From contig CANJVG010000004.1 of the NCBI GenBank assembly GCA_947478005.1, positions 3,092-67,091 of the forward strand: a stretch of 64,000 nt of DNA. Direction: 5' to 3'. The stretch comes from Bacteroidota bacterium. GTDB lineage: Bacteria; Bacteroidota; Bacteroidia; Chitinophagales; LD1. The notes under the pieces are model-generated. The model was not told where the DNA came from. It saw nothing but the letters and a program-made list of their open reading frames with translations, and made no database searches. The position numbers and the translations under genes are program-made. Shown here in pieces: positions 1,804 through 42,967 of this stretch. How positions within the stretch are numbered: position 1 is the stretch's first letter; every line of letters starts with the position of its first letter.

Positions 1804-3030
1804 ATGAATCGTGTGGTTATTACGGGCATTGGCATTTGGTCTTGTATTGGAAAAAATACGGAAGAAGTAAAAGACTCGCTTTATCGCGGTAAATCGGGAA
1901 TTATTCTCGACCCTGCCCGAAAGGAATTCGGTTATCGTTCGGGCTTGACCGGTGTTTGTGAAAAACCTCAATTGAAAGGATTGCTCGACAGGCGTGCCCG
2001 CATTATGCTTTCCGAGCCGGGGGAATATGCTTACATGGCTACCTTGCAGGCCTTGGAACAGGCCAAGATGGACCAGGATTTCCTTGACCACCATGAAACA
2101 GGCATTATTTATGGCAATGACAGCACTGCCCAAGCAGTGGTGGAATCTACCGACATCATGCGCGAGAAGAAAAATACTCAGTTTGCCGGTAGCGGAGCCG
2201 TATTCCAAACCATGAACAGCACAGTGAACATGAACCTGGCTACTATTTTCAAGCTAAAGGGAATCAACTTTACCGTAAGTGCAGCTTGTGCCAGCGGTTC
2301 ACATTCCATTGGTTTGGGCGCTTTCCTAATTCGTCATGGCTATCAGGATAGAGTAGTTTGTGGCGGAGCACAGGAGTTGAACATCTTCTCCATGGGAACC
2401 TTCGATGCACTCGCAGCTTTTTCGGTTCGCGAAAATGAGCCCACCAAAGCATCGCGCCCTTTTGATAAGGATAGAGACGGATTAATTCCAAGTGGTGGCG
2501 CGGCTACCGTCATTATAGAATCCCTTGCAAGCGCACAGAAGCGTGGCGCTACTATTCTGGGCGAACTAATCGGTTACGGGTTTTCTTCCAATGGCGGTCA
2601 TATATCTAATCCTACAGTAGATGGTCCCGTTCGTTCGCTAATGACCTGTTTAAATGATGCAAACATAAAGCCTGATGAAATTGATTACATCAACGCTCAT
2701 GCTACTTCTACACCCCAGGGTGATGCCAGTGAAGCACAGGCTTTGGCTGCAGTATTTGGTTCTTATCAACCTCTGGTTAGCTCTACCAAATCAATGACCG
2801 GCCATGAGTGTTGGATGGCGGGTGCCAGTGAAATTGTCTATTCCCTCTTGATGATGCACAATAATTTTGTAGCCCCGAATATCAACTTCGAGAACCCTGA
2901 CGAGTATTCTGCAAAATTGAATATTGCCAAAACTGTTAAAGAGAAGAATATTGATGTATTTTTGTCCAACTCTTTCGGCTTTGGCGGCACCAACTCATCG
3001 TTGATTGTTAGAAAGTGGAAGTATAATTAA
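1804..3030 (+). CDS. beta-ketoacyl-ACP synthase (KAS I/II family)
   Basis: 408 aa. Cys-His-His triad contexts are present: SAACASGSHSIG, NAHATSTPQGD, MTGHECWMAGA. C-terminal FGFGGTNSSLIV. Confidence 0.85.
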   Translation: MNRVVITGIGIWSCIGKNTEEVKDSLYRGKSGIILDPARKEFGYRSGLTGVCEKPQLKGLLDRRARIMLSEPGEYAYMATLQALEQAKMDQDFLDHHETGIIYGNDSTAQAVVESTDIMREKKNTQFAGSGAVFQTMNSTVNMNLATIFKLKGINFTVSAACASGSHSIGLGAFLIRHGYQDRVVCGGAQELNIFSMGTFDALAAFSVRENEPTKASRPFDKDRDGLIPSGGAATVIIESLASAQKRGATILGELIGYGFSSNGGHISNPTVDGPVRSLMTCLNDANIKPDEIDYINAHATSTPQGDASEAQALAAVFGSYQPLVSSTKSMTGHECWMAGASEIVYSLLMMHNNFVAPNINFENPDEYSAKLNIAKTVKEKNIDVFLSNSFGFGGTNSSLIVRKWKYN

Positions 3031-3042
3031 CCCATTATTGTT

Positions 3043-3294
3043 ATGACAAACGAAGAAATAATTTCTAAAATAAACGGGTTCCTGACCGAGGAATTTGAAG
3101 TTGATGAATCAATCATTTCGCCAGATGCAACCCTTAAAGAAACCCTTGAACTGGATTCACTGGATTATGTAGACCTTGTGGTTATTATTGAAGGCAACTT
3201 TGGTATAAAAGTAAAACAGGAGGATTTCACCGGTATTCGCACCTTCCAAAATTTATACGATTACGTTATCAGTAAATTAGCGCAGAAGGCTTAA
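3043..3294 (+). CDS. acyl carrier protein
   Basis: 83 aa. LELDSLDYVDLVV carries the DSL phosphopantetheine attachment motif. It starts 13 nt after the KS. Confidence 0.85.
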   Translation: MTNEEIISKINGFLTEEFEVDESIISPDATLKETLELDSLDYVDLVVIIEGNFGIKVKQEDFTGIRTFQNLYDYVISKLAQKA

Positions 3295-3297
3295 GCA

Positions 3298-4173
3298 ATG
3301 GCGGAGTGGAAAGGTAAATCGCGTGGAAACACCGTTGGCTACGCCATCTTCATCTTCATCTTCAAAAACTTCGGAGTTCGTCCCGCCTATTTGATCCTTC
3401 TCTTTGTAGCTCTTTATTACTTCTTCTTTTCGTTCGAAACATCTAAGCATATCTACCATTACTTCAACCAGCGCATTGGTTACGGCAGGGTTAAATCGTT
3501 CTTCAAAATCTACGAAAGCTACTATCGTCTGGGGCAAATGCTCATTGACAAAACCATGATAATGTCAGGCATGGGAGATCAATTTACTTCCGAATCCTTC
3601 GGTGCCGAAAATATGCGAGCCATTGTGGCAGGAAACAGAGGAGGAATTCTTTTGGGCGCGCATTTGGGAAATTGGGAAATTGCCGGTCACTATCTCATGA
3701 ACTATGGCGACACCATCAATATTCTGGTGTATGACCGCGAACATGAAGCCATCAAAAACTATATGGACCAGGTAACCGGAGGTAGAAAATTCAAACTCAT
3801 CCCTATTAAAGATGACCTTTCACATATTTACGAAATAGGCGAGGCGCTCGAACGCAACGAAATAATAGCCACCACAGCTGACCGTTTTTTGAATGATGGG
3901 AAAACCCGTAGCCTGAAATTTTTAGGGGAGGAAGCGAGGTTTCCTATAGGCATTTTTCAAATTATCAAAACTTTCAGAGCCAATTACACGTTTGTATACG
4001 GGGTAAAGCGAAGTGCAACTCATTATAACTTCTATTGTCGCCCCCACAGAACCGTTACCAAAGAAACAACACTGGATATGATTATGGAAGATTATGTTCA
4101 CGACTTGGAAGGAATGGTGAAAGAAAACCCCGAGCAATGGTTTAACTATTACGATTTCTGGAAAAAAGTATAA
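3298..4173 (+). CDS. LpxL/HtrB-type lysophospholipid (lipid A-like) acyltransferase
   Basis: 291 aa. N-terminal TM segments, the GAHLGNWE motif (H-x-x-N-W-E of the LpxL family) and a C-terminal PEQWFNYY. Confidence 0.7.
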   Translation: MAEWKGKSRGNTVGYAIFIFIFKNFGVRPAYLILLFVALYYFFFSFETSKHIYHYFNQRIGYGRVKSFFKIYESYYRLGQMLIDKTMIMSGMGDQFTSESFGAENMRAIVAGNRGGILLGAHLGNWEIAGHYLMNYGDTINILVYDREHEAIKNYMDQVTGGRKFKLIPIKDDLSHIYEIGEALERNEIIATTADRFLNDGKTRSLKFLGEEARFPIGIFQIIKTFRANYTFVYGVKRSATHYNFYCRPHRTVTKETTLDMIMEDYVHDLEGMVKENPEQWFNYYDFWKKV

Positions 4174-4626
4174 ATGAAATTACCTATCAGCGGACAAGAC
4201 TTAATAAACCTTATTCCTCAAAAGCCGCCTTTTGTACTTATCAGTTCGTTGCAGCAGATTAGCGAAACTCACGCAATCACAACTTTTATATTTAGTGACG
4301 ACCACCCGCTATCTAACCATGGAAAACTAACGGTGGCCGGACTTATGGAAAACATCGCTCAGACAGCAGCGGCAAAAATGGGTTATGAATGCGATTTGCT
4401 GGGCAAAAAAATACCTATTGGTTTTATTGGCGATGTGCGCGATTTCGCTTTCACACAACTTCCTTTGGTGGGAGAAGAAATAGAAACGGAAATTGTTATT
4501 ACCAATCAGATTTTTGATGTCAGCATTATATCCGGCTCAGTAAAACTTAACGGAACTGAGATTGCCCACGGAAAGATGAAGATATTTGTAGAACCGGAGA
4601 ATAAAGCAACCGAACAGCCCGAATGA
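4174..4626 (+). CDS. hotdog-fold 3-hydroxyacyl-ACP dehydratase-like protein (ApeI/FabZ-like)
   Basis: 150 aa. N-terminal LIPQKPPFVLISSL resembles the LPHRxPxLLVD entry motif of FabA/FabZ/ApeI-like dehydratases. The start abuts the upstream stop. Confidence 0.55.
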   Translation: MKLPISGQDLINLIPQKPPFVLISSLQQISETHAITTFIFSDDHPLSNHGKLTVAGLMENIAQTAAAKMGYECDLLGKKIPIGFIGDVRDFAFTQLPLVGEEIETEIVITNQIFDVSIISGSVKLNGTEIAHGKMKIFVEPENKATEQPE

Positions 4627-5057
4627 GCAATAAACACGCATCCTCGCTATTGGCTGTTGCCCGAATCGAAATTCGCTTTAATGAATGCGACCCGCTGGGC
4701 ATTGTATGGCATGGCAACTATGTCAATTATTTTCAGGAAGGGAGAGAAGCATTCGGCAAGAAGTATCACCTTGATTATATGGAGATGTATAACAAAGGCT
4801 TTGCAACGCCCATTGTCCATCTCTCTACCGATTTTAAACGCACACTTCAGTATAAAGACATTGCGCTGGTAGAAACTACCATGAGAATTACCCCCGCTGC
4901 AAAACTGATTTTTGATTACATTATTCGCAACGAAAAGAACGGTGAACTGGTTTGTAAAGGAACCACCACGCAGGTTTTCGTTTCAGGCAAGGCTATGGAA
5001 CTTTCGATGGTAGTTCCAGAAGTATTTGCCGACTGGAAAAAACTAAACGGATTGTAA
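4623..5057 (+). CDS. 4HBT/YbgC-type acyl-CoA (acyl-ACP) thioesterase
   Basis: 144 aa. RIEIRFNECDPLGIVWHGNYVNYF matches the 4HBT active-site Asp context. It overlaps the upstream gene by 4 nt. Confidence 0.7.
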   Translation: MSNKHASSLLAVARIEIRFNECDPLGIVWHGNYVNYFQEGREAFGKKYHLDYMEMYNKGFATPIVHLSTDFKRTLQYKDIALVETTMRITPAAKLIFDYIIRNEKNGELVCKGTTTQVFVSGKAMELSMVVPEVFADWKKLNGL

Positions 5058-6175
5058 TGCCCCCTGTTTACGTAGCAGCCGACAATATCACCTCGCCTTT
5101 AGGAAACTCCACCACAGAGAATTTCGAAAAGGTAACGAACGGGCTATCTACAATCCGTCAAATTACAGACAGTTCGCTTTCTCCTGAGGCTTTTTATGCT
5201 TCCATGTTTGAGCAGATAAATTGCGAAGATGGTTTTACCCGTTTCGAAACTATTTCCATCGCTTCCATCCAAAATTCTTTAGCACAAACAGAGATAAAAC
5301 TCTCGTCTGCCGACACACTCTTTATTCTTTCCACTACCAAAGGAAATATTGAACTGATAGAAGGCAAAGACATGAACGAAGAACTGAGAAGCCGCGTTTC
5401 ATTATTCAATACGGCTAAACTAATTGCCGAACATTTCGGCTCAACGAACAAACCCTTGGTTGTTTCCAATGCCTGCATCTCGGGTGTGCTCTCTGTAATC
5501 ATTGCCAGGCGCTTATTGCAATCGGGTAAATACAAACATGCGGTTATCTGCGGTGCCGATGTGCTTTCAAAGTTTATCATCAGCGGCTTTCAATCCTTGA
5601 ATGCCATGAGTAAGAATCCCTGCAAACCATTTGACAGCAGCCGCGATGGAATTAATTTGGGCGAGTGCGCTGCTACCATTGTTTTGACTACCGACAAATC
5701 GCTTTCAAAAAATATTTTAGTAAATGGCGGAGCCAGCAGCAACGATGCTAATCACATTTCGGGCCCATCACGAACTGGTTTGGAATTATCTTTTGCAATA
5801 AACAAAGCTATGATGGATAGTGGAGTTACTGCCGATGCTTTATCCTTTATCTCCGCCCACGGCACAGCCACCCTTTTCAATGATGAAATGGAAGCAAAGG
5901 CATTTAATCATGCCGCCCTTGCGCAGGTTCCTTTGCATAGTCTTAAAGCGCACTTCGGGCATACACTAGGTGCAGCAGGAGTGCTCGAATCTATCTTTAC
6001 CTATCAGTCGTTATTAGAAGGAATTATACTTCCCAGTAAGAACTTCCACACTTTGGGTGTTTCGGAAAACGTTACGGTCAATAGGGAACTAACAAAAAGC
6101 ATTAAAACACATGCATTAAAAACAGCCTCCGGATTTGGTGGCTGCAATGCTGCCATTGTATATTCGCACGCTTAA
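5057..6175 (+). CDS. beta-ketoacyl synthase (second KS of the cluster)
   Basis: 372 aa. SNACISGV (Cys), ISAHGTATLFND (His), HFGHTLGAAG (His), and a C-terminal SGFGGCNAAIV. Confidence 0.8.
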   Translation: MPPVYVAADNITSPLGNSTTENFEKVTNGLSTIRQITDSSLSPEAFYASMFEQINCEDGFTRFETISIASIQNSLAQTEIKLSSADTLFILSTTKGNIELIEGKDMNEELRSRVSLFNTAKLIAEHFGSTNKPLVVSNACISGVLSVIIARRLLQSGKYKHAVICGADVLSKFIISGFQSLNAMSKNPCKPFDSSRDGINLGECAATIVLTTDKSLSKNILVNGGASSNDANHISGPSRTGLELSFAINKAMMDSGVTADALSFISAHGTATLFNDEMEAKAFNHAALAQVPLHSLKAHFGHTLGAAGVLESIFTYQSLLEGIILPSKNFHTLGVSENVTVNRELTKSIKTHALKTASGFGGCNAAIVYSHA

Positions 6176-6187
6176 ATTATTCAACCA

Positions 6188-7459
6188 ATGAGCACAGAAA
6201 AAGTTGACGTATTAGTAATAGGTGCAGGTCCTGCGGGCACTGTGGCCGCTTCTATAATCAATAAAGCAGGATTCAAAGTAAAGATTGTAGAAAAGGAAAA
6301 ATTCCCTCGCTTTGTTATTGGCGAAAGTTTACTGCCGCGCTGCATGGAAGCTTTAGATGATGCCGGTTTTCTTCCCGTGCTCAAGGAGCAGGGCTACCAG
6401 GAAAAGTTTGGGGCTAAGTTCACCCATGGCGACAACGGCATTATGGACTTTAATTTCAGCGACCAGTTTACCAAAGGCTGGAGCTGGACCTGGCAGGTAC
6501 CGCGCGCTCACTTCGATAATGTACTGGCCACCGAAGTGCAACGGATGGGAGTGGAGGTAGCTTTCGAAACAACCGTTACCGATATTAAATTTGAAGGAAC
6601 CAACTCCACCACCACGGTGGTCGACAAAAGCGGAGTGGAGAGCAAAATTGAAGCCCGGTTTATTGTAGATGGCTCCGGCTATGGCCGCGTTATTCCGCGC
6701 TTGTTCAAACTCGATAGACCTTCCAATCTTCCTCCGCGCAAAACTTTATTCACCCATATCCGCGATACCCGCAGAAACGACTATGTAGAGCCCAACCGCA
6801 TTTTGATAGTCGACCACAAGCCGGGTGTCTGGGCCTGGTGCATTCCTTTCAGCAATGGCATTACCAGTTGCGGTTTTGTAAGCGAACCCGGCTTCTTCGA
6901 TGCCTTCCCGGGCGAACCCGAAAAACAATTGCGCGATATTATTGCCAGCGACTGGAGCATCGCTCCGCGCTTCAAAGACTGCGAGTTCCTGTTCGAACCA
7001 CGCGTCTTGCAGGCCTGGTCTGTCAGCACCGACCGTTTCTTTGGCGATGGCTATGTCCTCACCGGCAACGTCACCGAATTCCTCGACCCTGTTTTCTCTT
7101 CGGGCGTTACACTGGCTACTGCCTCCTCCCAAATAGCGAGCAAACTGGTAGTGCGCCAACTGCAGGGCGAAACCGTGGACTGGCAAAAAGAATATACCGA
7201 TGTGATGATGCAGGGCGTAGATACCTTCCGCTCCTATGTGCTGGCCTGGTACGAAGGCAGCCTGCAAAAAATATTCTTTGCCGAAGTGCGCAACGAAGAA
7301 GTCATTCGCCAGATCTGCTCTGTACTGGCCGGCTACGTATGGGATACCGACAACCCCTATGTAAAAAACCACAGCACCTACCTCAAACGCATGGTGCGCT
7401 TAATAGCCGTAGGCAAAAAGCTCAAAGATTTAGAAGAGAGCGAGATGGAAGGGAATTAA
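6188..7459 (+). CDS. FAD-dependent oxidoreductase with flavin-dependent halogenase motifs
   Basis: 423 aa. VLVIGAGPAGTVAA (GxGxxG), RFVIGESLLP, WAWCIPF (WxWxIP) and FLDPVFSSG (FxxPxxSxG). Confidence 0.65.
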   Translation: MSTEKVDVLVIGAGPAGTVAASIINKAGFKVKIVEKEKFPRFVIGESLLPRCMEALDDAGFLPVLKEQGYQEKFGAKFTHGDNGIMDFNFSDQFTKGWSWTWQVPRAHFDNVLATEVQRMGVEVAFETTVTDIKFEGTNSTTTVVDKSGVESKIEARFIVDGSGYGRVIPRLFKLDRPSNLPPRKTLFTHIRDTRRNDYVEPNRILIVDHKPGVWAWCIPFSNGITSCGFVSEPGFFDAFPGEPEKQLRDIIASDWSIAPRFKDCEFLFEPRVLQAWSVSTDRFFGDGYVLTGNVTEFLDPVFSSGVTLATASSQIASKLVVRQLQGETVDWQKEYTDVMMQGVDTFRSYVLAWYEGSLQKIFFAEVRNEEVIRQICSVLAGYVWDTDNPYVKNHSTYLKRMVRLIAVGKKLKDLEESEMEGN

Positions 7460-7587
7460 CACCCGCCTCGTCATCTACACTTTTGAAAAGATAGCCGGCT
7501 GTTTGTCCCATTATAAATAAGTGAAACGGGATGGGCGGCTGGCTGTTTGTCCTCCTCTCGGAGGAGGTGCCCGAAGGGCGGAGGAGG

Positions 7588-7676
7588 AGGCTGTTTGTCT
7601 TCATTCGGAGAGCCTGTTCCGATTCAAAGTCGGGAAGGTGGCTCGCGGCTCTGCGCGAGACGGAGGAGGAAAAAAC
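7588..7676 (+). repeat. REP-like dispersed element (GGCTGTTTGTCTTCATT...GCGAGACGGAGGAGGAAAAAAC)
   Basis: A reverse-complement copy lies at 26049-26114. GGCTGTTTGTC occurs three times in 7528-7600. A perfect hairpin CCTCCTC-tcg-GAGGAGG lies at 7551-7567. Confidence 0.6.
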
Positions 7677-7742
7677 AAAAAAACAAAATCCTATCGAGAT
7701 GATATAGGTTTTTAGATTCGTGAGGTGAAGCGGTAAGTTAGC
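7671..7742 (+). repeat. P repeat copy 1 (cassette leader element)
   Basis: Contains the core ATAGGTTTTTAGATTCGTGAGGTGAAGCGGTAAGTTAGC, preceded by an A-rich run. It ends 10 nt before the ATG at 7753. Confidence 0.85.
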
Positions 7743-7752
7743 ACTAGCTACT

Positions 7753-8490
7753 ATGAACAAGGTATTCTTGATTTTCTTTACTTTATTTTTATCAAATACT
7801 TTGCTTAGCCAAAGTAACCTGTCGCGCAAAAGAATCGAGAGAACTTTAACGTGTAATAACCTCAATACTGACTCACTAAATGCATATTATAACCCAAAAG
7901 GAGGTTTGATTGATGTATACCAGGATTTATACTGGGAATTAGAAGAAGTCGCGTTTTACAATGACCATGTAGCCTCGCTAATGCCCGAAATGACAATTGT
8001 AACAGTGTTGACATTCCTAGAGGATAGTTTGATTAAAGGCACTTATCTGTTTCACAATAAAGAAGTTTCAATCCAGCATTACGACATTAAGAAAGAATAT
8101 AGACTTGAGATAATTAAAACTATTGGGGAAAGAGTTAAGAAAATTGGATTTCAATTTTCTGACATTAATAAAAGGGAGATAGAAATATACTTTGACTCGG
8201 ACACTTCTGATGTAACCAAGCCTGATGGAAGACATTTTGGTCGACTTGACTATGGTCAAACGTTAATTAACCACACTATAAAAATCTGTAAATTCAAACC
8301 TAACCTTATTGTTTATTCAGAATTTTCGCAAAGAGGGCAACTGATTAAAGAGGGTAGTTATCAATATGTGTCTTCTGCAACGGATACTATTACACAGATA
8401 AATCCCTTTACTCTGGAAGAGGAAGAGATAGCAAGAACATATCCGGTTTATGAGAAAGCAAATGATTGGAAATATTATCTGCCAAAGTGA
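7753..8490 (+). CDS. cassette 1: hypothetical secreted protein
   Basis: 245 aa. Signal-peptide-like MNKVFLIFFTLFLSNTLLSQ. The C-terminal G-x-L-x-K-E-G-x-Y and W-K-Y-Y segments weakly resemble MORN/YwqK-type repeats. Confidence 0.6.
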   Translation: MNKVFLIFFTLFLSNTLLSQSNLSRKRIERTLTCNNLNTDSLNAYYNPKGGLIDVYQDLYWELEEVAFYNDHVASLMPEMTIVTVLTFLEDSLIKGTYLFHNKEVSIQHYDIKKEYRLEIIKTIGERVKKIGFQFSDINKREIEIYFDSDTSDVTKPDGRHFGRLDYGQTLINHTIKICKFKPNLIVYSEFSQRGQLIKEGSYQYVSSATDTITQINPFTLEEEEIARTYPVYEKANDWKYYLPK

Positions 8491-8530
8491 GATTCAACAG
8501 TCTTGATCCTGCCTCTCCTGTCTTTAAGCA

Positions 8531-8610
8531 CCAACCACCCCCCAAAAAAAATAAAATCCCATCGGGATGATATAGGTTTTTAGATTCGTGAGGTGAAAGC
8601 AATAAGTTTA
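8531..8610 (+). repeat. P repeat copy 2
   Basis: ACCAACCACCCCCCAAAAAAAATAAAATCCCATCGGGATGATATAGGTTTTTAGATTCGTGAGGTGAAAGCAATAAGTTTA. Confidence 0.9.
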
Positions 8611-8619
8611 AATTTACTG

Positions 8620-9270
8620 ATGAAGCCAATTCTAAGTTTAATATTCTCTCTCTTGTGTTTGCCGATATTTTCTCAAACGATTGAGGAAACAAAAGTAATA
8701 GCTAACTCTGCTTTAATTAGCATTGTGGGTCGGCCATTTTTTGAAACTGCCTTTAGATATAATTGCACTAAAAGCGCGACAAGAATCGCTTATACTCGTT
8801 GGCCTGACTGTAACAAAAAGACGGTTAAACAGAAAAGGCTTTTTGCAAAAGAAAACCAACAGTCGAAATCGAAATCATTTGAGATAGTATATGACTGCCT
8901 GTTACTTGATACCATAGAAGGGCTTGTGGAAATTCATTTGGATGAAAAAGGCAACGTTAAACGTTTTATTGGCATCAAACCCAGTGATAGCTCCAGTTTG
9001 CTTTCTACTCTTTCTATTACTAAAATAGAAGCCATTGCCATTGCCGTTAAATCTGGCTTTAAGCTTGGCTTTAGTCCCTGGGAAGTAAGCTTGACCTACC
9101 AAAAACCAACAAGCAATCAAGGTGACGAGAAATACTATTGGGAGATAAAAAACACTTTAGTCCCAGTTGATAAAACCCAATGGAACTCTGAAGGGGAGAT
9201 ATTTCGTGTTGATGCTTCAAATGGTGTTGTTTCCGGCAAAATAACTTGGGTAAAACAAATGGAATACTAA
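8620..9270 (+). CDS. cassette 2: hypothetical secreted protein
   Basis: The start was moved from the GTG at 8593 (inside the P repeat) to the in-frame ATG at 8620, giving MKPILSLIFSLLCLPIFSQ. A PepSY-like segment is possible (ITKIEAIAIAVKSGF...YYWEIKN). Confidence 0.6.
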   Translation: MKPILSLIFSLLCLPIFSQTIEETKVIANSALISIVGRPFFETAFRYNCTKSATRIAYTRWPDCNKKTVKQKRLFAKENQQSKSKSFEIVYDCLLLDTIEGLVEIHLDEKGNVKRFIGIKPSDSSSLLSTLSITKIEAIAIAVKSGFKLGFSPWEVSLTYQKPTSNQGDEKYYWEIKNTLVPVDKTQWNSEGEIFRVDASNGVVSGKITWVKQMEY

Positions 9271-9272
9271 TC

Positions 9273-9340
9273 ACCCCAAAAATAAAATCCCATCGGATGA
9301 TATAGGTTTTTAGATTCGTGAGGCGAAGCGATAAGTTATA
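9273..9340 (+). repeat. P repeat copy 3
   Basis: CACCCCAAAAATAAAATCCCATCGGATGATATAGGTTTTTAGATTCGTGAGGCGAAGCGATAAGTTATA. It starts 3 nt after the cassette 2 stop. Confidence 0.9.
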
Positions 9341-9384
9341 CCCTCTTTTTAGTGCCTGGTTAATATTAACCTCTATAAATTCTA

Positions 9385-9891
9385 ATGAGCAATAAAACCA
9401 AATACATACTGACAATTATTTTGACGGTTTGCGGTCTTTTGGTTTATCGCTTTTTGACTAATCCCTATCGTTTTACTAAAGATGATTTTAAACAGGTTTA
9501 TAAAAATGGTGACGCAGCAACACAAGAAAATTATATAGCGCAATGTAAAGCAGAATTTGAGGGCAATCTATTTTTTCCGTTGGGTGATGTAAGTAAAGCA
9601 GTATTTTGCAAAGGATTCTTCTCACTAGACAAGACTTTGGATTCCAACAAAGCAAAAAGGTTAGTAACAATACTTAATGACACAGCCAGTTATATTTGGG
9701 GAGAATCTGGAACATTTCTTCCTGATAGAGCTATAGTGTTTTACGACAAGAACAACAATCCAATTGGCATAACAGAACTTGAAGAAGACGGACGACAAAC
9801 CTATTCTCATCCATATCTAAAGCGAACCAAATGGGGGGCACTTAAAGATAACGCTGTGAATGAAATTAATATGCTGACCACAAGCTTTTGA
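9385..9891 (+). CDS. cassette 3: hypothetical membrane-anchored protein
   Basis: 168 aa with an N-terminal TM helix (YILTIILTVCGLLVYRF). I recognise no family motif. Confidence 0.55.
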   Translation: MSNKTKYILTIILTVCGLLVYRFLTNPYRFTKDDFKQVYKNGDAATQENYIAQCKAEFEGNLFFPLGDVSKAVFCKGFFSLDKTLDSNKAKRLVTILNDTASYIWGESGTFLPDRAIVFYDKNNNPIGITELEEDGRQTYSHPYLKRTKWGALKDNAVNEINMLTTSF

Positions 9892-9896
9892 AATTC

Positions 9897-9946
9897 CGTC
9901 CCCGCAGGCTTTCCACCTCGGAACCCTGCGCGAGTTAAGGGCTAAG
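9897..9946 (+). repeat. C repeat (hairpin CGCAGG...CCTGCG) copy
   Basis: CGTCCCCGCAGGCTTTCCACCTCGGAACCCTGCGCGAGTTAAGGGCTAAG. The same 50-nt element also occurs at 11388, 11641 and 12512, with an expanded copy at 10697. Confidence 0.8.
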
Positions 9947-9950
9947 CCCA

Positions 9951-10020
9951 TCCCCAAAAAATAAAATCCCATCGGGATGATATAGGTTTTTAGATTCGTG
10001 AGGTGAAGCAATAAGCTAGC
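9951..10020 (+). repeat. P repeat copy 4
   Basis: TCCCCAAAAAATAAAATCCCATCGGGATGATATAGGTTTTTAGATTCGTGAGGTGAAGCAATAAGCTAGC. It ends 9 nt before the ATG at 10030. Confidence 0.9.
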
Positions 10021-10029
10021 GGCAAGTTT

Positions 10030-10668
10030 ATGAAACAGACACTTTATATATTCGCAATATTGGTTTGGTTGATGAGTTGTAATAATTCATCAACCAAACC
10101 GACAGAAACAGTTCAAACAAAATTGTTGACTTTGTCCGACTTGAAAAAGGACTTCAAATTTTCGAATCTGACAGAATTTCAAATTGACACATTTAGTTGG
10201 GAAACAAGACCAGGAAAATATAATGAACTTGACAGTTCGACATTTTATATGGTTTGGCAAGACCATAAGAGAACTTTTGCTGGTCAAGGTTACGACAGAG
10301 ATTATTTATTTTCTTGGCAAAATAGGGATTCAAATTTTATAGAGTTTACAATTCTAACTCAGGACGAAAGCGACTACTGCAGCAACATTACTTATTGCAT
10401 TTGCGATAAGGCGGGCAAAGCAATTGACAAATTTGTTGCAAGTTCATCTTGCGGTGACGGTGGTTGGGTATTTGTAGCGTTTGGGAAATTCATTGACAAC
10501 CGGACTTATGAGAAACTTTGTATCGAATCTGAAATGGCTGGAACAGACACACTTGACAACAAAGACTTTCACGAAGGAGATTCAACACTTATTCATTTTA
10601 TTATCGGAGCCAATGGAAAGGTTACTCAGAAAGAGATTTATAAAAAACACTTTACTGACAAATGGTAA
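10030..10668 (+). CDS. cassette 4: hypothetical lipoprotein
   Basis: 212 aa. Lipobox-like ILVWLMSC at the end of a signal peptide. No recognisable family. Confidence 0.6.
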   Translation: MKQTLYIFAILVWLMSCNNSSTKPTETVQTKLLTLSDLKKDFKFSNLTEFQIDTFSWETRPGKYNELDSSTFYMVWQDHKRTFAGQGYDRDYLFSWQNRDSNFIEFTILTQDESDYCSNITYCICDKAGKAIDKFVASSSCGDGGWVFVAFGKFIDNRTYEKLCIESEMAGTDTLDNKDFHEGDSTLIHFIIGANGKVTQKEIYKKHFTDKW

Positions 10669-10696
10669 GAAACCCAGCCTCTAACAGTGGGTTTTG

Positions 10697-10757
10697 TTCC
10701 CCGCAGGCACTCCGCTCCCGAAGCATCGGGAGGCACCCTTCGCGAGTGAAGGGCTAA
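10697..10757 (+). repeat. C repeat copy with internal extra hairpin
   Basis: TTCCCCGCAGGCAC...CGCGAGTGAAGGGCTAA, with an inserted perfect hairpin CTCCCGA-agca-TCGGGAG. Confidence 0.7.
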
Positions 10758-10760
10758 TAA

Positions 10761-10846
10761 ACCAACCAACCACCCCCCAAAAAAAAATAAAATCCCGTCC
10801 GAATGCTATAGGTTTTTAGATTCGTGAGGTGAAGTGATAAGTTAGC
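10761..10846 (+). repeat. P repeat copy 5 (most diverged in 5' half)
   Basis: ACCAACCAACCACCCCCCAAAAAAAAATAAAATCCCGTCCGAATGCTATAGGTTTTTAGATTCGTGAGGTGAAGTGATAAGTTAGC. Confidence 0.85.
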
Positions 10847-10869
10847 GACAAGTTTAAAGACAGACAGCA

Positions 10870-11376
10870 ATGGCAATGACAGAGTTAAACAAACGGCACT
10901 TAATTTCAGACCGTCAACTTATAGACAGTTTAGTAAATCAGTTTTCAGTTGTAAGTAGCGACAGCGAGAATTGGACAAAGACATTTCTTGACAAGACAAC
11001 TAACCAGAATTGGATAAGCTACTATGTTGACACGGCACAGCACGGTGGCGGACACAATGTTCTTGGACGACTTCCCCTTCCTTCGACAGACAAATTAATT
11101 GACATAGCAATTCACTCAGAAAACGAGGATGAAGTATTTGCTGCTTGTCTGACTTTGACAGACAATGAAGAGTTAAGAAAACAAGATTTTCGTATAGCAC
11201 TTATTGACAAACTTGAAGTCTTACAAGACAAAGACAGACAGAAAAAAGTAGTTGAACTTACAGGACTTTCTTCACTCCTAAACAGACAAGATATTTTAGG
11301 AAAGAATTCCGGTCAAATAGAAACTGATGCTTATTATTACAAGCAAATTGCTGACCGAGCGGCCAAATTAAAATGA
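10870..11376 (+). CDS. cassette 5: hypothetical cytoplasmic protein, immunity-protein-like
   Basis: 168 aa, no signal peptide. The motif ENWTKTFLDKTTNQNWISYYVDTAQHGGGHNVLGRLPLP resembles conserved cores of polymorphic-toxin immunity families. This is from memory, not a search. Confidence 0.55.
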   Translation: MAMTELNKRHLISDRQLIDSLVNQFSVVSSDSENWTKTFLDKTTNQNWISYYVDTAQHGGGHNVLGRLPLPSTDKLIDIAIHSENEDEVFAACLTLTDNEELRKQDFRIALIDKLEVLQDKDRQKKVVELTGLSSLLNRQDILGKNSGQIETDAYYYKQIADRAAKLK

Positions 11377-11387
11377 TAATGACTCCT

Positions 11388-11437
11388 CTTCCCCGCAGGC
11401 TCTCCACCTCGGCACCCTGCGCGAGTGAAGGGCTAAG
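11388..11437 (+). repeat. C repeat copy
   Basis: CTTCCCCGCAGGCTCTCCACCTCGGCACCCTGCGCGAGTGAAGGGCTAAG. Confidence 0.8.
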
Positions 11438-11538
11438 TTTTGCCTTTGTTGTTTAGTCCCCCCTCTGCTGCACCTCCCCAACAACCCAAGCGATGAGAAG
11501 ACAGCAGTTTGCCTTTAAGCCCTGAAAGGGCGCCATCC
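11438..11538 (+). repeat. A repeat copy 1 (101 nt)
   Basis: Near-identical to 12562-12662. Internal inverted repeats CTGCTG...CAGCAG and GCCCT-gaa-AGGGC. Confidence 0.85.
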
Positions 11539-11640
11539 CCCTGTTCTTCAAAGTCTTCCGGCTCTGCGGATGACTTCGAAGTTCTTATGAAAGTTCAAAG
11601 TCTGTGACTTTGAAAAGCCACAGCGAAACAGGCCTAGCTT
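11539..11640 (+). repeat. B repeat copy 1 (~102 nt)
   Basis: Near-identical to 12410-12511. Contains a perfect hairpin TTCAAAGTC-tgt-GACTTTGAA. Confidence 0.85.
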
Positions 11641-11690
11641 CGTCCCCGCAGGTTCTCCGCCTCGGCACCCAGCGCGAGTGAAAGGCTAAG
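11641..11690 (+). repeat. C repeat copy
   Basis: CGTCCCCGCAGGTTCTCCGCCTCGGCACCCAGCGCGAGTGAAAGGCTAAG. Confidence 0.8.
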
Positions 11691-11702
11691 AAGTCAACCT
11701 CT

Positions 11703-11764
11703 CCCCCCAAAAAAAAACAAAATCCCATCGGGATGATATAGGTTTTTAGATTCGTGAGGTGAAG
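11703..11764 (+). repeat. P repeat copy 6
   Basis: CCCCCCAAAAAAAAACAAAATCCCATCGGGATGATATAGGTTTTTAGATTCGTGAGGTGAAG. The 3' tail after GAAG diverges from the other copies. Confidence 0.85.
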
Positions 11765-11822
11765 ACGACCATATTAAGTAGATTTGTCTCATACTTTTAG
11801 CCAAAGCTAATAGTTATGCGTC

Positions 11823-12404
11823 ATGCTAATGAAGACAACAGTAATAATATGGACATTTATGACCGCTTTCAGTTGCAATACTGCATTTGGACAGACGACT
11901 TATGAATTAAGGGGCAAGTTGACAGACTGTTTAGACAGTAAACCACTTATTCTCGGACACATGTTTCTCAAGCAAGGTGATAGCCTTGTTCAGACCGTTC
12001 CAATTGACGATAAAGGACAATTTAATTTTAAAGAACTCAGCCCTGGGAACTATCAATTGGAAACCTATTATTTTTATTATCCAATCAAAGGACAAGATAT
12101 TGCAGTTCCCAGCGACACCACAGTTGCTATTTGCGTCTCGGAAGGAAATCCAGACAGTCTTTTAAACACATATAAGCTCAGACACAGTTACACAATTTTT
12201 GATTATGGACTTTCCGCTTATTCAGATGAAGACCTAAATACAGTTGGTCAACAATATGGTGTTAAGTGGCAAAATCTGGGTTGTGTTTCTGATGACAGGT
12301 TTGACAAATACAATAAAGTAATTGAGAAAATACTTGCTTATAGAAATGGGAAAGATTGGAAGAATAAGTTTTGGAATGAAGTAAAGCAAAAGTATGGTAA
12401 TTGA
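11823..12404 (+). CDS. cassette 6: hypothetical secreted protein with carboxypeptidase-regulatory-like N-domain
   Basis: 193 aa. Signal peptide (TVIIWTFMTAFSCNTAFGQ), then a beta-sandwich-like stretch YELRGKLTD...GQFNFKELSPGNYQLETYY. An alternative ATG is at 11829. Confidence 0.6.
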   Translation: MLMKTTVIIWTFMTAFSCNTAFGQTTYELRGKLTDCLDSKPLILGHMFLKQGDSLVQTVPIDDKGQFNFKELSPGNYQLETYYFYYPIKGQDIAVPSDTTVAICVSEGNPDSLLNTYKLRHSYTIFDYGLSAYSDEDLNTVGQQYGVKWQNLGCVSDDRFDKYNKVIEKILAYRNGKDWKNKFWNEVKQKYGN

Positions 12405-12409
12405 GAAAG

Positions 12410-12511
12410 CCCTGTTCTTCAAAGTCTTCCGGCTCTGCGGATGACTTCGAAGTTCTTATGAAAGTTCAAAGTCTGTGACTTTGAAAAGCCAAAGCGAAAC
12501 AGGCATAGCTT
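12410..12511 (+). repeat. B repeat copy 2
   Basis: Matches 11539-11640 with only a few substitutions. It starts 6 nt after the cassette 6 stop. Confidence 0.85.
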
Positions 12512-12561
12512 CGTCCCCGCAGCCTCTCCGCCTCTGCACTCTGCGCGAGTGAAGAGTTACG
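12512..12561 (+). repeat. C repeat copy
   Basis: CGTCCCCGCAGCCTCTCCGCCTCTGCACTCTGCGCGAGTGAAGAGTTACG. Confidence 0.75.
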
Positions 12562-12662
12562 TTTTGCCCTTGTTGTTTAGTCCCCATTCTGCTGCACCTC
12601 CCCAACAACCCAAGCGATGAGAAGACGGCAGTTTGCTTTCAAGCCCTGAAAGGGCGCCATCC
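12562..12662 (+). repeat. A repeat copy 2
   Basis: Matches 11438-11538. It is followed by the hairpin AACAGGGC-gca-GCCCTGTT. Confidence 0.85.
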
Positions 12663-12760
12663 ACTAACACAGGGCGCAGCCCTGTTAAAACCACGCCTTT
12701 TCCTGTTAAATTCACCAATTCCACTGCAAAACCTCATTCACCCTTCCCAAAAGTAAAAAA

Positions 12761-13020
12761 GGAGCTCTCTGGGTAAGAGTGGGAAGACGCTGGGTAAGAC
12801 CGGGAGCTCCTTGGGTAAGAGCGGGAAGGCGCTGGGTATGAGCGGGAGCTCGCTGGGTAAGGGCGGGAAGGCGTTGGGTATGAGCGGGAGCTCACTGGGT
12901 AAGGGCGGGAAGACCCTGGATATGAGCGGGAGCTCAATGGGTAAAGGCGGCAAGGCGCTGGGTATGAGCGGGAGCTCTCTGGGTAAAGGCGGGAAGACGC
13001 TGGGTAAGACCGGTTGTGCA
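12761..13020. repeat. 21-bp (alternating 42-bp) tandem repeat, 12 units
   Basis: Units CTGGGTAAGGGCGGGAAGGCG and CTGGGTATGAGCGGGAGCTCG alternate from 12769 to 13020. Several frames on both strands are open, which explains ORF-track entries 12734-13031 and the 5' part of 12811-13587. Confidence 0.9.
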
Positions 13021-13227
13021 ATGGCTAACACAGAAAAACTCCTCCATAAACACCATCACCTTCACTTCATAATCAAACCATCAAACCCTCAAACGTCAAA
13101 CTCTCCCTTCATCATCAAATCATCAAATCACCAAATTATCAAATCCTCCCCACCCTCATTTCGCCATTTCAAATTCTTGATTTATTTTAGCCATACCAAT
13201 GAATATACCCCCCTAAACGCCACTGTT

Positions 13228-22697: not shown

Positions 22698-24305
22698 TTA
22701 CATCTTTATCAATCTTCTCTTAATGCTCACTTCTCCAGTTTTAAATTCGGCTATGTAAACACCACTTGCCATTTGGCTGATGTCGATGGTTTTATTTTGA
22801 ACTTGCTTGGTTTGGCTTACTAAGCTTCCGTTAGTTTCATAAATGTTCACTTGATCCACAGCGGCACCATTTGTTTCGATAAATAGTTGGCTCGTTGCCG
22901 GGTTAGGGTAAACATTAAGTGCAATCGAGCTTTCTGTTTCCGCAATACCAGTTGCTGTAGCTTCACCTAATTTTACAACCCAAAACTCTGGATGTAGGGC
23001 ACTCCCGTGGTGACCTGTAACATCGCCATCAATAGAGTACGATTTACCTGCCATAGCGAATCCGCCATCTGTTGTTTTAGCAATTGAGTAAGCTAAGTCC
23101 TGACCGCTTCCTCCTAATGATTTCTGCCAAGCGATTACACCTGTGCTTCTCAATTTAACCACCCAGTAGTCGTATAGACCATGATTTTCTGTTACATCTC
23201 CATCATTAGAGTTTGAATAACCTGTTATCGCAAATCCACCATCTGCTGTTTGAACGATAGAAGTAGCTTCATCGCCTCCGCTTCCACCATACGATTTTTG
23301 CCATTGAATTGTTGCTGTGCTGCTCAATTTCACTACCCAGTAATCGCGGTTACCGTGATTCGCTGTCAAATCACCATCAGTAGAGCTTGATTGACCGGCA
23401 ATAGCGTAGCCTCCATCAGTTGTTTGAATAATACCGTAAGCGTTGTCATAATCGCTTCCGCCTAAAGACTTCTGCCATTCCAATGAACCTGTGCTGCTAA
23501 TTTTTACTAACCAGGCATCCACGTTCCAATCCAAACCATGGTTCCCGGTTACATCGCCATCAGTAGAGGCAGAAACACCTGCCAGAGCATATCCACCATC
23601 AGCTGTTTGAATGATTGAATAAGCTTCATCGGTGCTGGTTCCGCCTAATGATTTTTCCCAATCTAAATCGCCATTGCTCTTTAGTTTTACTACCCATATA
23701 TCATTGCTGCCGTGATTAGCTGTAATGTCCCCGTCTGTAGAACGAGAAAGACCTGCTACTGCATAACCACCATCCAATGTTTGAATGACAGAATAAGCCT
23801 GGTCAACATCTGAGCCCCCTAATGATTTTGACCATTCAATAGCCCCTGAACTGTTTAGTTTAACTACCCAGTAATCGCTGCTACCGTGGTTTCCTGAAAC
23901 ATCGCCATTGTTGCTGTCTGAATTTCCGGCAATTACAAAACCGCCATCCGTTGTTTGAACTACTGAATAGGCCCAGTCATATCCATCGCCTCCAAGCGAT
24001 CTTTGCCATTCAATAGCTCCAGCGCTGTTTCTTTTTGCTAGCCAGTAATCAGTACCTCCATGGTTTCCGCTAACTTCTCCACTTGTAGAGTCAGAGTTAC
24101 CGGTTACAGCATAACCTCCATCTGTGGTTTGAATAATGGAGTAGGCTTCGTCATTGCCGCTGCCTCCCATTGGTTTTTCCCATTGTATAACGGGCGATTG
24201 TGCCTTAGCAGCGAAGGTGAATGCTGCTGTAGCGAATAGCATAAGTAACACTTTGCTCATTCTGCTTTTTTCCATTTTAAGGAGTTTTTTGTTATTCGAA
24301 TTCAT
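22698..24305 (-). CDS. T9SS C-terminal-sorting-domain protein with ~9 propeller-like repeats
   Basis: 535 aa. The unit SLGGxxxDxAYSxxQTxDGGYxxAGxSxSxDGDVxxNHGxxDYWVVKLxxxGxxxWxK is repeated about 9 times. C-terminal LNVYPNPATSQLFIE...GVYIAEF. The true start may be an internal Met (MSKVLLMLF). Confidence 0.8.
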   Translation of the reverse strand: MNSNNKKLLKMEKSRMSKVLLMLFATAAFTFAAKAQSPVIQWEKPMGGSGNDEAYSIIQTTDGGYAVTGNSDSTSGEVSGNHGGTDYWLAKRNSAGAIEWQRSLGGDGYDWAYSVVQTTDGGFVIAGNSDSNNGDVSGNHGSSDYWVVKLNSSGAIEWSKSLGGSDVDQAYSVIQTLDGGYAVAGLSRSTDGDITANHGSNDIWVVKLKSNGDLDWEKSLGGTSTDEAYSIIQTADGGYALAGVSASTDGDVTGNHGLDWNVDAWLVKISSTGSLEWQKSLGGSDYDNAYGIIQTTDGGYAIAGQSSSTDGDLTANHGNRDYWVVKLSSTATIQWQKSYGGSGGDEATSIVQTADGGFAITGYSNSNDGDVTENHGLYDYWVVKLRSTGVIAWQKSLGGSGQDLAYSIAKTTDGGFAMAGKSYSIDGDVTGHHGSALHPEFWVVKLGEATATGIAETESSIALNVYPNPATSQLFIETNGAAVDQVNIYETNGSLVSQTKQVQNKTIDISQMASGVYIAEFKTGEVSIKRRLIKM

Positions 24306-29585: not shown

Positions 29586-29986
29586 GTGTTAGAATGCTTC
29601 ATTCAAATGGAAGAAAGCGGTTGCCACATGCCGGAATGCTTCATCCACATGGGAAAAAATGGTTGCCATGTGTCGGAATGCGCATTTCATCCATTAAAAG
29701 GCACTCGCTACTTTTCAAAAGGCGTGTTTCATCCGTCAAAAGTCGCTCACGATATTTGTAAAGTCGTTCACGACCCGTCAAAAGGCGCTTTCCATCCATC
29801 AAAAGGCGTTCACGATGTGGCAGAAGGTGCAATTCATCCATCAAAAGGCGCTCATGACGTGCTAAAAGTTGTTCATGATGTGTCGAAAGGCGTTCACGAC
29901 CTTGTAAAAGGCGTTCACGATGTGTGAAAAGGCGTTCAGGACCTGTCAAAAGGATTCAATGACGTGTTAGAATGGACTATTTGACA
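29586..29986. repeat. 21-bp tandem repeat, ~19 degenerate units
   Basis: Units such as GTCAAAAGGCGTTCACGATGT and ATCAAAAGGCGCTCATGACGT stay in strict 21-nt register from 29609 to 29986. First and last units both begin GTGTTAGAATG. Open frames on both strands explain ORFs 29586-29927 and 29641-29949. Confidence 0.85.
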
Positions 29987-41977: not shown

Positions 41978-42220
41978 GGCCTATAGTTTTACTAATTTAC
42001 TTGCCTTAACTTGGTCTTGTTTACTTTAATACTGTAAATATAAACAACGGCATTAATATTCTTTGCCCCGCATATCCAAGTCACCCTGCACAAGTGGAAG
42101 AACGCGATATTGTGGTATTCTAATTCAGCAATCCAATTAGAACAAAGGTTTTGATTTCCCAAAACCTGTTTTGTTGATGTTAAAACCATCAATTTCGGGG
42201 CAATAACACAGTCTAAATCT

Positions 42221-42570
42221 GAAATGGTTATGATAGATGCTATCATAATGATGTTACGAAGTGAAATGGTTACGATAGATGCTATCGTAATGATGTTAGG
42301 AAGTGAAATGGTTACGATAGATGCTATCGTAATGATGTTACGAAGTGAAATGGTTATGATAGATGCTATCGTAATGATGTTACGAAGTGAAATGGTTATG
42401 ATCGATGCTATCGTAATGATGTTACGAAGTGAAATGGTTACGATCGATGCTATCGTAATGATGTTAGGAAGTGAAATGGTTACGATCGATGCTATCGTAA
42501 TGATGTTAGGAAGTGAAATGGTTACGATCGATGCTATCGTAATGATGTTACGAAGTGAAATGGTTATTTC
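42221..42570. repeat. 42-bp tandem repeat, 8 full units plus a partial
   Basis: The unit GAAATGGTTACGATAGATGCTATCGTAATGATGTTA(C/G)GAAGT holds exact 42-nt register from 42221. Each unit holds a perfect hairpin TTACGATAG-atg-CTATCGTAA. Both strands are open (ORFs 41992-42630 and 42224-42589). Confidence 0.9.
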
Positions 42571-42967
42571 GGATGGAAATGAGAATTGAAGCAGTAAAAC
42601 CATGTTCTTTTTACAAAAAGAAAAGGTCAAGATTTAGCAAATTAAGGTCTTTTTGTGGTTAATCGAGACCATTTCTCTCCAAATCGTAAGGATAATTTGT
42701 TGAATCGAGATCATTCTGAAATGTGGCACCCTGAATTGCTTGTTAACTCAGAGCTTAAGCATAAATAGCGACCGCTTTTTAGAAGACTAAACGGCTAACC
42801 GGTTAGTCGTTACAATAGAGCCGAGTCCTCCTCGTGCTCATTTGCACCCAAAAGGTTCGATTTTAACGGCACAGTTTATCCAAACCCTTGTATTTCCGTT
42901 GTGATGAATATAGGGTTGTGATTTAACCCAGCTTGGCTATCTAAGCAAACACCATAGGCCTACCAAC

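Follow-up and report, generated by a model that had tools for sequence, protein, structure and literature searches.

How do six small, mutually unrelated genes come to stand in a row, each behind a copy of the same short DNA element, and what does this element do for them? The question is raised by a stretch of 64,000 nucleotides (hereafter the window) from a Bacteroidota bacterium of the order Chitinophagales (lineage LD1; assembly GCA_947478005.1, contig CANJVG010000004.1, positions 3,092 to 67,091 of the forward strand). The genes, which we call cassettes 1 to 6, follow one another on the + strand, and the element, P, is a module of about 75–90 nt that lies before every one of them (Table 1). 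We think that the array may be an integrase-less, attC-less set of integron-derived cassettes, each fused at its crossover point to a shared promoter or leader, P, and we would give this reading a probability of about 45%.

The 27-nt core of P, ATAGGTTTTTAGATTCGTGAGGYGAAG, has six matches in the window when up to three mismatches are allowed, all of them on the + strand and together spanning 7704–11764, and none in 100 dinucleotide-preserving shuffles searched with the same tolerance; five of the six matches are exact and the sixth has one mismatch. Repeat finding recovers the same six copies as one 75-nt family, and an nhmmer profile of the whole element finds no seventh copy in the window, so that the earlier note on this DNA, made from the letters alone, had counted correctly six copies of P for six unrelated genes. 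In 97 loci (about 1.6 Mb) the profile detects nothing beyond other assemblies of the array locus itself. An exact 21-mer of the core is absent from the genome_contigs, JGI metagenome_contigs and viral_contigs collections, among which the source assembly is evidently not present, so that this negative has little bearing on the rest of the genome, and BLAST searches against plasmids and phages returned nothing relevant to P or to the six proteins.

The placement of P is equally regular. All six copies precede an open reading frame (ORF) on the + strand, with 22, 21, 56, 21, 35 and 58 nt between the end of the core and the ATG, whereas the distance back to the preceding stop codon is far more variable (31 to 361 nt). 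One copy stands before the first gene and none behind cassette 6, and the block begins after a biosynthetic operon with its stop at 7459, both as noted earlier; the gene that stops there is a flavin adenine dinucleotide (FAD) halogenase. The start of the second gene, in turn, had to be moved to the ATG at 8620, the GTG at 8593 lying inside P. Across the six copies, the core shows substitutions at 2 of the 162 aligned positions (6 x 27 nt, about 1%). The 5' part, which consists of a C-run, an A-run and then AAAATCCCATCGGGATG, and the 3' part, the dozen bases GCGATAAGTTAGC, are both several-fold more variable; in the roughly 20 nt 5' of the core, we counted about 7% substitutions. Since homogenisation alone would not spare only the core, its better conservation relative to the flanks makes it look selected in every copy. 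Repetitive extragenic palindromes (REP) or miniature inverted-repeat transposable elements (MITE) would be scattered in both orientations without relation to gene starts, while the copies of P, in the 64 kb and the 1.6 Mb searched, are found only in the array, on one strand and before starts.

The proteins encoded behind P are heterogeneous. Their ORFs have GC contents of 34.0–37.9%, against 42–44% in the rest of the window, and an all-against-all blastp comparison gave no E-value below 1. As read from the translations, five of the six proteins begin with a signal peptide, a lipobox or a membrane anchor. Cassette 1 has no homologue among 5.8 billion proteins and no match in Pfam at E<=1 except an irrelevant one at 0.07, so that the weak MORN/YwqK-like repeats formerly suspected in it are not borne out. 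Cassettes 2 and 3 match no family in Pfam, PADLOC or PHROGs, and the last two resources gave nothing relevant to any of the six proteins. For cassette 4, structure prediction gives a confident model (pLDDT, the predicted local distance difference test score, of 86) with a beta-rich fold, for which a fold search found no match in the PDB. Cassette 5 alone scores 21.3 bits against Pfam Imm27 (PF15590; E 2.6e-4), below the gathering cut-off of 27.3; among its homologues, which number about 27–28 and of which 15 carry a precomputed Imm27 annotation, all 24 aligned family members match Imm27, with a best E-value of 2.1e-8. By these profile comparisons cassette 5 is a member of the Imm27 immunity family, in agreement with the immunity-like core ascribed to it before. 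The wider proposal of an array of immunity genes holds for this cassette and finds no immunity-family signal in the other five, so that, judged by family matches, an immunity role is recognisable in only one of the six proteins. One homologue (P0002; JGI 3300071358), an 89%-identical Imm27 protein, is encoded by a gene that overlaps a preceding 98-aa gene by 4 nt, which itself lies behind a 288-aa gene; this trio could be a candidate toxin-immunity operon, both upstream genes being without annotation.

Elsewhere, homologues of cassettes 4 and 5 (48–89% identical in the case of cassette 5) either stand alone or belong to arrays that have canonical attC sites. On four contigs (L088, L089, L090 and L091, the last of them from a metagenome-assembled genome, or MAG, of Pedobacter), homologues of cassette 5 lie within co-oriented arrays of small genes, with a SUKH/SMI1_KNR4 immunity protein as one of the neighbours. 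The genes of these arrays are separated by repeats of 100–170 nt that are textbook integron attC sites: the R'' box ends in TAAC and the R' box reads GTTA(G/T/C)(C/G), the L'' and L' arms are complementary with compensatory changes between arrays, and the bottom strand folds into the expected bulged hairpin with arm-pair energies of -15 to -23 kcal/mol. A 590-kb contig (L006) holds a solitary homologue of cassette 5, 88% identical, with R' and R'' boxes still present, and another contig (L093) a solitary, 79%-identical homologue of cassette 4 with an attC that, by eye, seems degenerate. None of the homologous cassettes elsewhere carries P, which indicates that P lies outside the mobile cassette and is an addition made in this lineage. 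A scan of JGI metagenomes with cassette 5 gave three loci, none of them informative.

The comparison also locates the cassette boundaries. Nucleotide homology between cassette 4 and L093 extends from 10017 to 10687; its first bases are TAGCGG, within the box GCTAGCG at the end of P4, and it finishes at an R''-like TCTAAC just past the stop codon. For cassette 5, BLAST begins the homology to L006, L089 and L090 at 10852–10857; optimal local alignments extend it, with AAGTTAGCGACAA-GTTTAAAGAC of the window opposite AAGTTACCAGCAATGTTAAACGAC, and overall the homology begins at 10839–10857. In these alignments GTTAGCG (10841–10847) falls opposite the canonical R' box GTTACCA, in the same register for L006 and L089; the L089 alignment scores better than its shuffles (p = 0.028), while that of L006 does not (p = 0.37). 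A register proposed by MAFFT, with CGTGAGG of the core opposite the canonical CGTTACC, was dropped in favour of the one given by the optimal local alignments. Cassettes 4 and 5, and only these, thus combine a boundary at the G|TT of a GTTRRRY core with homology to attC-associated cassettes. By these two features they are of integron ancestry, and by the same alignments P sits directly 5' of the integron crossover point G|TT, a place at which a normal array has attI before its first cassette and, before every later one, the L' arm that belongs to the attC of the cassette ahead. In the canonical arrays, R' and ATG are 30–50 nt apart, which leaves no room for a promoter of the cassette's own, and such cassettes would need one supplied.

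The comparison loci (L088–L092, L006 at 9950–10560 and L093 at 1100–1850) are of interest in themselves as canonical attC arrays and solitary cassettes of environmental Bacteroidota that hold Imm27 and SUKH genes. The R''/R' helices of their attC sites are unusually long, AACACTGCTGGTAAC pairing with GTTACCAGCAATGTT, and this is why unrelated cassettes share a conserved 5' leader, GTTA-N4-CAAT-N-TTAAACGAC.

P is not an attC, and there is no canonical attC in the array. Whether it is folded as RNA or as DNA, on the one strand or the other, by itself or together with its entire intergenic region, P is no more stable than shuffled sequence (z-scores from -1.6 to +1.2). Uncompensated changes in P1, P3 and P5 disrupt its sole hairpin, ATCCC/GGGAT (5 bp), the cassette junctions are not spanned by inverted repeats, and Rfam matches nothing in P. 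For 17 aligned canonical attC sites, RNAalifold gave only 8 pairs owing to their variable central region; attC sites were sought by a folding scan for AAC...GTT arm pairs and by hidden Markov models (HMM) of the arms. The scan recovers every true attC of the comparison loci, with the energies given above for L088, L089 and L091, whereas the best arm pairs of the window reach -8 to -11 kcal/mol and do not lie at junctions. The HMM of canonical 3' arms has no match on P, and the best match of the 5'-arm model in the window is weak (E 0.85), a remnant right after the stop codon of cassette 4 that consists of an R''-like TCTAAC and an L''-like AGTGGGTTTTG. Where P3 follows directly on the stop of cassette 2, there is no room for a 5' partner. 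Thus, from the integron-like layout proposed earlier, the heterogeneous, co-oriented, low-GC array and the integron-type cassettes 4 and 5 stand, while attC hairpins are missing. Integrase and recombinase domains are absent from the 44 largest ORFs of the window (>=150 aa, nested and overlapping ones excluded) in Pfam scans, and the array has an FAD halogenase as its 5' neighbour in place of the adjacent IntI-type gene of a complete integron.

Three resemblances within P were considered and set aside. Its 5' half, CACCAAC...AAAATCCCATCGGGATG, recalls by eye the L'-R' arm CCCACCAACGCAAAGCCCCATTCGTTATG of L089 and could have been a relic of it, a likeness that the 3'-arm HMM does not share. A minus-strand hairpin followed by a T-run might be taken for a terminator; its 5-bp stem is disrupted in three of the copies. 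The core also contains GAGGTGA, which looks like a Shine-Dalgarno sequence; it lies at least 24 nt from the start codons and was treated as coincidence, Bacteroidota not relying on such sequences.

What, then, might P do? In our opinion, the six cassettes would be a chromosomal, lineage-specific set of integron origin, whose canonical attC hairpins and linked integrase were lost or were never present, and each cassette would be joined at the G|TT of a GTTAGC-type R' box to one copy of P. P would supply a promoter of the Bacteroidota type, formed by the A-tract and, behind it, two -7-like boxes in tandem, TAGGTTTT and TAGATTCG; it would also provide the leader's first ~20 nt, and the otherwise promoterless cassettes could each be transcribed, possibly in a co-regulated manner, without the Pc promoter of an integron. 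P may have reached every cassette by homologous recombination or gene conversion that spread a promoter-bearing junction, although this is only one possibility. Such recombination has happened in the array, as the spacers after cassettes 5 and 6 suggest: their repeats, D9-X-Y-D9 and Y-D9-X, are circular permutations of each other, so that P6 and cassette 6 are bracketed by 144-nt direct repeats, 95% identical, which by their arrangement are the footprint of homologous recombination or of tandem duplication within the array.

The promoter activity of P is something that we infer from several features. The -7 box of Bacteroidota is TAnnTTTG, a motif that 8 of the window's 45 genes have upstream, roughly three times the background rate. 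P has two 7/8 matches to it, 8 nt apart and downstream of the A-tract, and one of them, TAGATTCG, had rightly been described as a single mismatch away. A core that is conserved, in one orientation, close to the starts and unstructured points to a linear protein-binding element that is needed at each gene. Moreover, an array cut off from any Pc would need promoters supplied, and we count for this reading that the array is apparently fixed and that the 44 largest ORFs show no recombinase domain. We are aware of no report in which one conserved linear module recurs at the crossover before every cassette. Integron cassettes that carry promoters, and ORF-less promoter cassettes, are alike in that a local promoter frees the cassette from Pc; their promoters are, to our knowledge, individual to each cassette.

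Several observations weigh against P as an expression module. Neither of the two -7-like boxes is a perfect TAnnTTTG, and no -33 element (TTTG or TTG) lies 19–21 nt upstream of them, where a housekeeping promoter would have it. Cassette 6 has its own perfect box, TAGATTTG, downstream of P6, so that P6 looks redundant as a promoter. The invariant stretch of 27 nt, which runs about 10 nt past any plausible transcription start, exceeds the length that a promoter requires. The end of P coincides exactly with the crossover box, where a binding site for IntI (attI or the L' arm of attC) would lie. Finally, the boundaries have been checked against homologues for two of the six cassettes, and the array is so far known from a single genome.

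The position at the crossover leads to another explanation, by which P is a recombination site, attI-like (double-stranded and non-hairpin) or a non-canonical equivalent of attC, served by an integron-type tyrosine recombinase encoded elsewhere, and the array is a live capture platform. P ends at a GTTRRRY-like box in P1 to P5 (Table 1), cassette-specific homology starts within a few nt of G|TT, extended P often begins with an inverse-core-like (A/G)(C/T)CAAC (in P2, P5 and P6), and the invariant core has about the size of a recombinase-binding region. The direct repeats and the permuted order of their neighbours tell that DNA rearrangement has occurred. It is established that attI sites are linear, about 65 bp long, class-specific and end in GTTRRRY, and that integrase-less attC clusters can be served in trans by an integrase encoded elsewhere. 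P resembles the platform of attI and Pc in being linear, ~65–90 bp long, immediately 5' of a cassette and putatively associated with its expression; yet an integron has a single attI beside intI, P is repeated before every cassette with no intI in view, and no known reaction duplicates attI. P has neither an inverted-repeat core nor a fold; P1 lacks the R''-like 5' end, P3 and P4 have it only in imperfect form, and P6 is without a GTT box. The 44 largest ORFs show no recombinase domain, and no second P locus appeared in the collections and loci searched. An identical array everywhere, which the earlier note had named as a point against its idea of recombinational assembly, is what we see: every assembly that holds the array has it unchanged, which does speak against active shuffling, but all of these assemblies may represent one strain. 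Taken together, we consider a recombination site as the main rival explanation, tentative and rather unlikely. A specific version of it, in which P belongs to an undescribed capture system of Chitinophagales with a linear attI-like site before every cassette in place of the folded attC and with an unlinked recombinase, is a good deal less probable. It is unlikely, too, that the repeats between the genes, P as well as D9, X and Y, are neutral or selfish elements (REP/MITE-like or decayed relics of attC) which local gene conversion keeps alike, with P devoid of any present function and the genes read through from upstream. D9, X and Y do share the intergenic spaces with P and show footprints of recombination, and the survival of an attC 5' arm only as the weak remnant after cassette 4 fits decay (decayed chromosomal integrons reportedly occur, for instance, in Xanthomonas). 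Against this, P keeps strictly one orientation and is fixed before every start codon (6/6), no copy occurs in the remaining 59 kb of the window or in ~1.6 Mb of related loci, the model of canonical attC 3' arms does not match it, and conversion alone leaves unexplained why the core is far better kept than its own flanks.

Two further explanations concern the genes more than the element. The earlier note had pointed to arrays of recombinase-associated acquired interbacterial defence in gut Bacteroidales (rAID-1), whose hallmarks are short co-oriented low-GC genes, repetitive intergenic motifs and immunity genes (10.1101/471110; PMC12247911) and whose definition includes, on the 5' side, a tyrosine recombinase resembling XerD and more than 44% identical to BF9343_RS08045 (10.1101/471110). 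The array has six + strand ORFs with the GC contents given above, where at least two co-directional downstream genes of GC <=41% are asked for; their products of 168–245 aa, the intergenic motifs "reminiscent of integrons", the presence of at least one family of polymorphic-toxin immunity, Imm27 (one of the six genes), and the SUKH/SMI1_KNR4 cassette that integron arrays with Imm27 homologues also carry would all suit orphan immunity genes gathered by such a recombinase. The defining recombinase is absent, however: the 5' neighbour is the halogenase, and the 44 largest ORFs show no XerD-like or other recombinase domain. Besides, reports of close relatives of the rAID recombinase are confined to Bacteroidales, whereas the host is a freshwater member of Chitinophagales, immunity is recognisable in one gene of six, and the cassette boundaries are of integron type. 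We therefore see membership in rAID-1 as failing, and this origin as very improbable. The regular spacing (680–930 bp) and the identical 5' elements might finally suggest tandem duplication of one unit of P and gene followed by divergence, an idea that we reject as hardly credible in view of six proteins without detectable similarity, two of which have separate families of homologues in other genomes.

Among known systems, the closest to the array are integron cassette arrays, especially clusters of attC sites lacking an integrase (CALIN) and decayed sedentary chromosomal integrons. The cassettes are likewise co-oriented, compact, unrelated and low in GC, with boundaries of the GTTRRRY type, cassettes 4 and 5 are homologous to cassettes beside canonical attC sites in Bacteroidota metagenome contigs (L088–L093), and the junction sequence is highly similar within one array, as with the Vibrio repeats (VCRs). 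Unlike them, the array has no attC hairpins, nor is there an integrase domain in the 44 ORFs scanned; such hairpins, of 57–141 nt, would stand at the junctions of an integron, and a CALIN is defined by at least two attC sites without an integrase (PMC9024848). P, moreover, is linear and unstructured, with its conserved part 5' of the crossover and no R''/L'' partner, and its copies are as many as the genes, six, the first gene being preceded by one and the last followed by none. By its gene content and boundaries, the array derives from and works like an integron cassette array, yet by their definitions it is neither an integron nor a CALIN nor a member of rAID-1; it looks like a domesticated or unusual offshoot of the integron.

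Table 1. Positions in the window of the six copies of P, the six cassettes and the accompanying repeats.
Feature	Position	Strand	Description
Spacer	7460–7670		From halogenase stop to P1; three GGCTGTTTGTC boxes ~48 nt apart, several GC-rich hairpins, weakly D9-like CTCTGCGCGAGACGGAGGAGG at the end
P1	7671–7743	+	Core 7704–7730; R'-like box GTTAGCA 7737–7743
Cassette 1	7753–8490	+	245 aa, signal peptide, GC 34%; orphan protein
P2	8530–8612	+	ACCAACC, C-run, A-run; core 8572–8598; GTTTAAA 8606–8612
Cassette 2	8620–9270	+	216 aa, signal peptide; no family match
P3	9271–9341	+	Begins 1 nt past cassette 2 stop; core 9302–9328; GTTATAC 9335–9341
Cassette 3	9385–9891	+	168 aa, N-terminal membrane anchor or lipobox; no family match
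D9 repeat	9899–9946	+	48-nt GC-rich imperfect hairpin directly 5' of P4
P4	9947–10021	+	Core 9982–10008; GCTAGCG 10015–10021
Cassette 4	10030–10668	+	212-aa predicted lipoprotein; Bacteroidota family of unknown function
attC 5'-arm remnant	10671–10695	+	R''-like and L''-like boxes after cassette 4 stop
D9, further copies	10711–10758, 11390–11437, 11643–11690, 12514–12561		
P5	10760–10847	+	Core 10808–10834; GTTAGCG 10841–10847
Cassette 5	10870–11376	+	168 aa, predicted cytoplasmic; Imm27-family immunity protein by profile
Repeats after cassette 5	11387–11690	+	Order D9a-X1-Y1-D9b
P6	11694–11786	+	Core 11738–11764; no GTT box; perfect -7 box TAGATTTG at 11779–11786
Cassette 6	11823–12404	+	193 aa, signal peptide or lipobox; prealbumin/CarboxypepD_reg-like domain and C-terminal FEKKY domain
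Repeats after cassette 6	12410–12686	+	Order Y2-D9c-X2, ends in double hairpin; no P

The halogenase that ends at 7459 belongs to an aryl-polyene/flexirubin-type cluster, and the flanks of the array consist of Bacteroidota housekeeping genes (the pigment cluster, SecDF, GalT, GalK, TamB and type IX secretion substrates). The closest homologues of the halogenase, with 84–93% identity, come from uncultured freshwater Chitinophagales MAGs. An ENA metagenome scaffold of 58.5 kb and a few short contigs also contain the array locus, with the same gene content and order. Among the short ones, L002 reaches from within P4 to the D9 copy behind cassette 5, and two more break off shortly ahead of the array or in its early part. 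In 80 related halogenase loci (60–93% identical), P, all of the cassettes and the genes that follow the array here are missing. The gene order of these relatives diverges right after the halogenase, which places the array at a lineage-specific breakpoint. The spacer between halogenase and P1 is identical in three contigs (L001, L003 and L004) and has no counterpart in the relatives; gene callers put a probably spurious 58-aa ORF there. From 1804 to 7459, the window encodes a ketosynthase, an acyl carrier protein, an acyltransferase, an ApeP-like protein, a thioesterase, a second ketosynthase and the halogenase, with which the cluster ends here. In two relatives (L013 and L019) the pigment cluster continues with another ketosynthase and more genes, so that it appears to be split at the site of the array. 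Farther away, two type IX secretion substrates with Por_Secre_tail domains, at 22698–24305 (-) and 40340–41977 (-), have internal repeats of ~58–60 aa with related units.

Besides P, the repeat families D9, X and Y are confined to the array within the window. D9 lies directly 5' of P4, P5 and P6, and a weak look-alike stands before P1. We considered D9 as a possible attC hairpin and rejected it: the stem mismatches are uncompensated in five copies, which is why D9 is not read as a functional hairpin, and an alignment with the attC of L093 is not backed by BLAST past 10687. At 12642–12686 (-), the end of the repeats after cassette 6 gives a sub-threshold match to the Acido-Lenti-1 RNA (RF01687; 31.1 bits versus a gathering cut-off of 37, E about 1e-4), with a partial copy at 11519–11536 (-). 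Two hairpins make up this site, GCCCTGAAAGGGC and ACAGGGCGCAGCCCTGT; with CTAAC...GTTAAAA on its flanks, the latter resembles an attC in miniature. The X1 copy retains one hairpin only, and the Y repeat begins with the same CCCTGTT. Tandem repeats of 21 bp occur at 12719–13054, where they adjoin the cassette array and overlap the start of a TTG-initiated ORF, and at 29675–29974, between genes; one of 42 bp (42136–42639) lies inside the ORF at 41992–42630 (-). The units of these three tandem arrays differ.

If P is an expression module, promoterless integron cassettes would have been "domesticated" into a stable, individually transcribed set after loss of the machinery, and this outside the Proteobacteria, in which integrons were worked out, in a phylum that has other promoters and translation signals. 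If P is instead a recombination site, such arrays would be missed by every integron finder based on attC, the capture of cassettes in Bacteroidota would be under-counted, and a capture system with linear sites would be a second architecture for integron-like gene acquisition. Either way, the canonical attC arrays with Imm27 and SUKH cassettes in environmental Bacteroidota are the loci for comparison, and they link integron cassettes to interbacterial defence outside the rAID systems of gut Bacteroidales.

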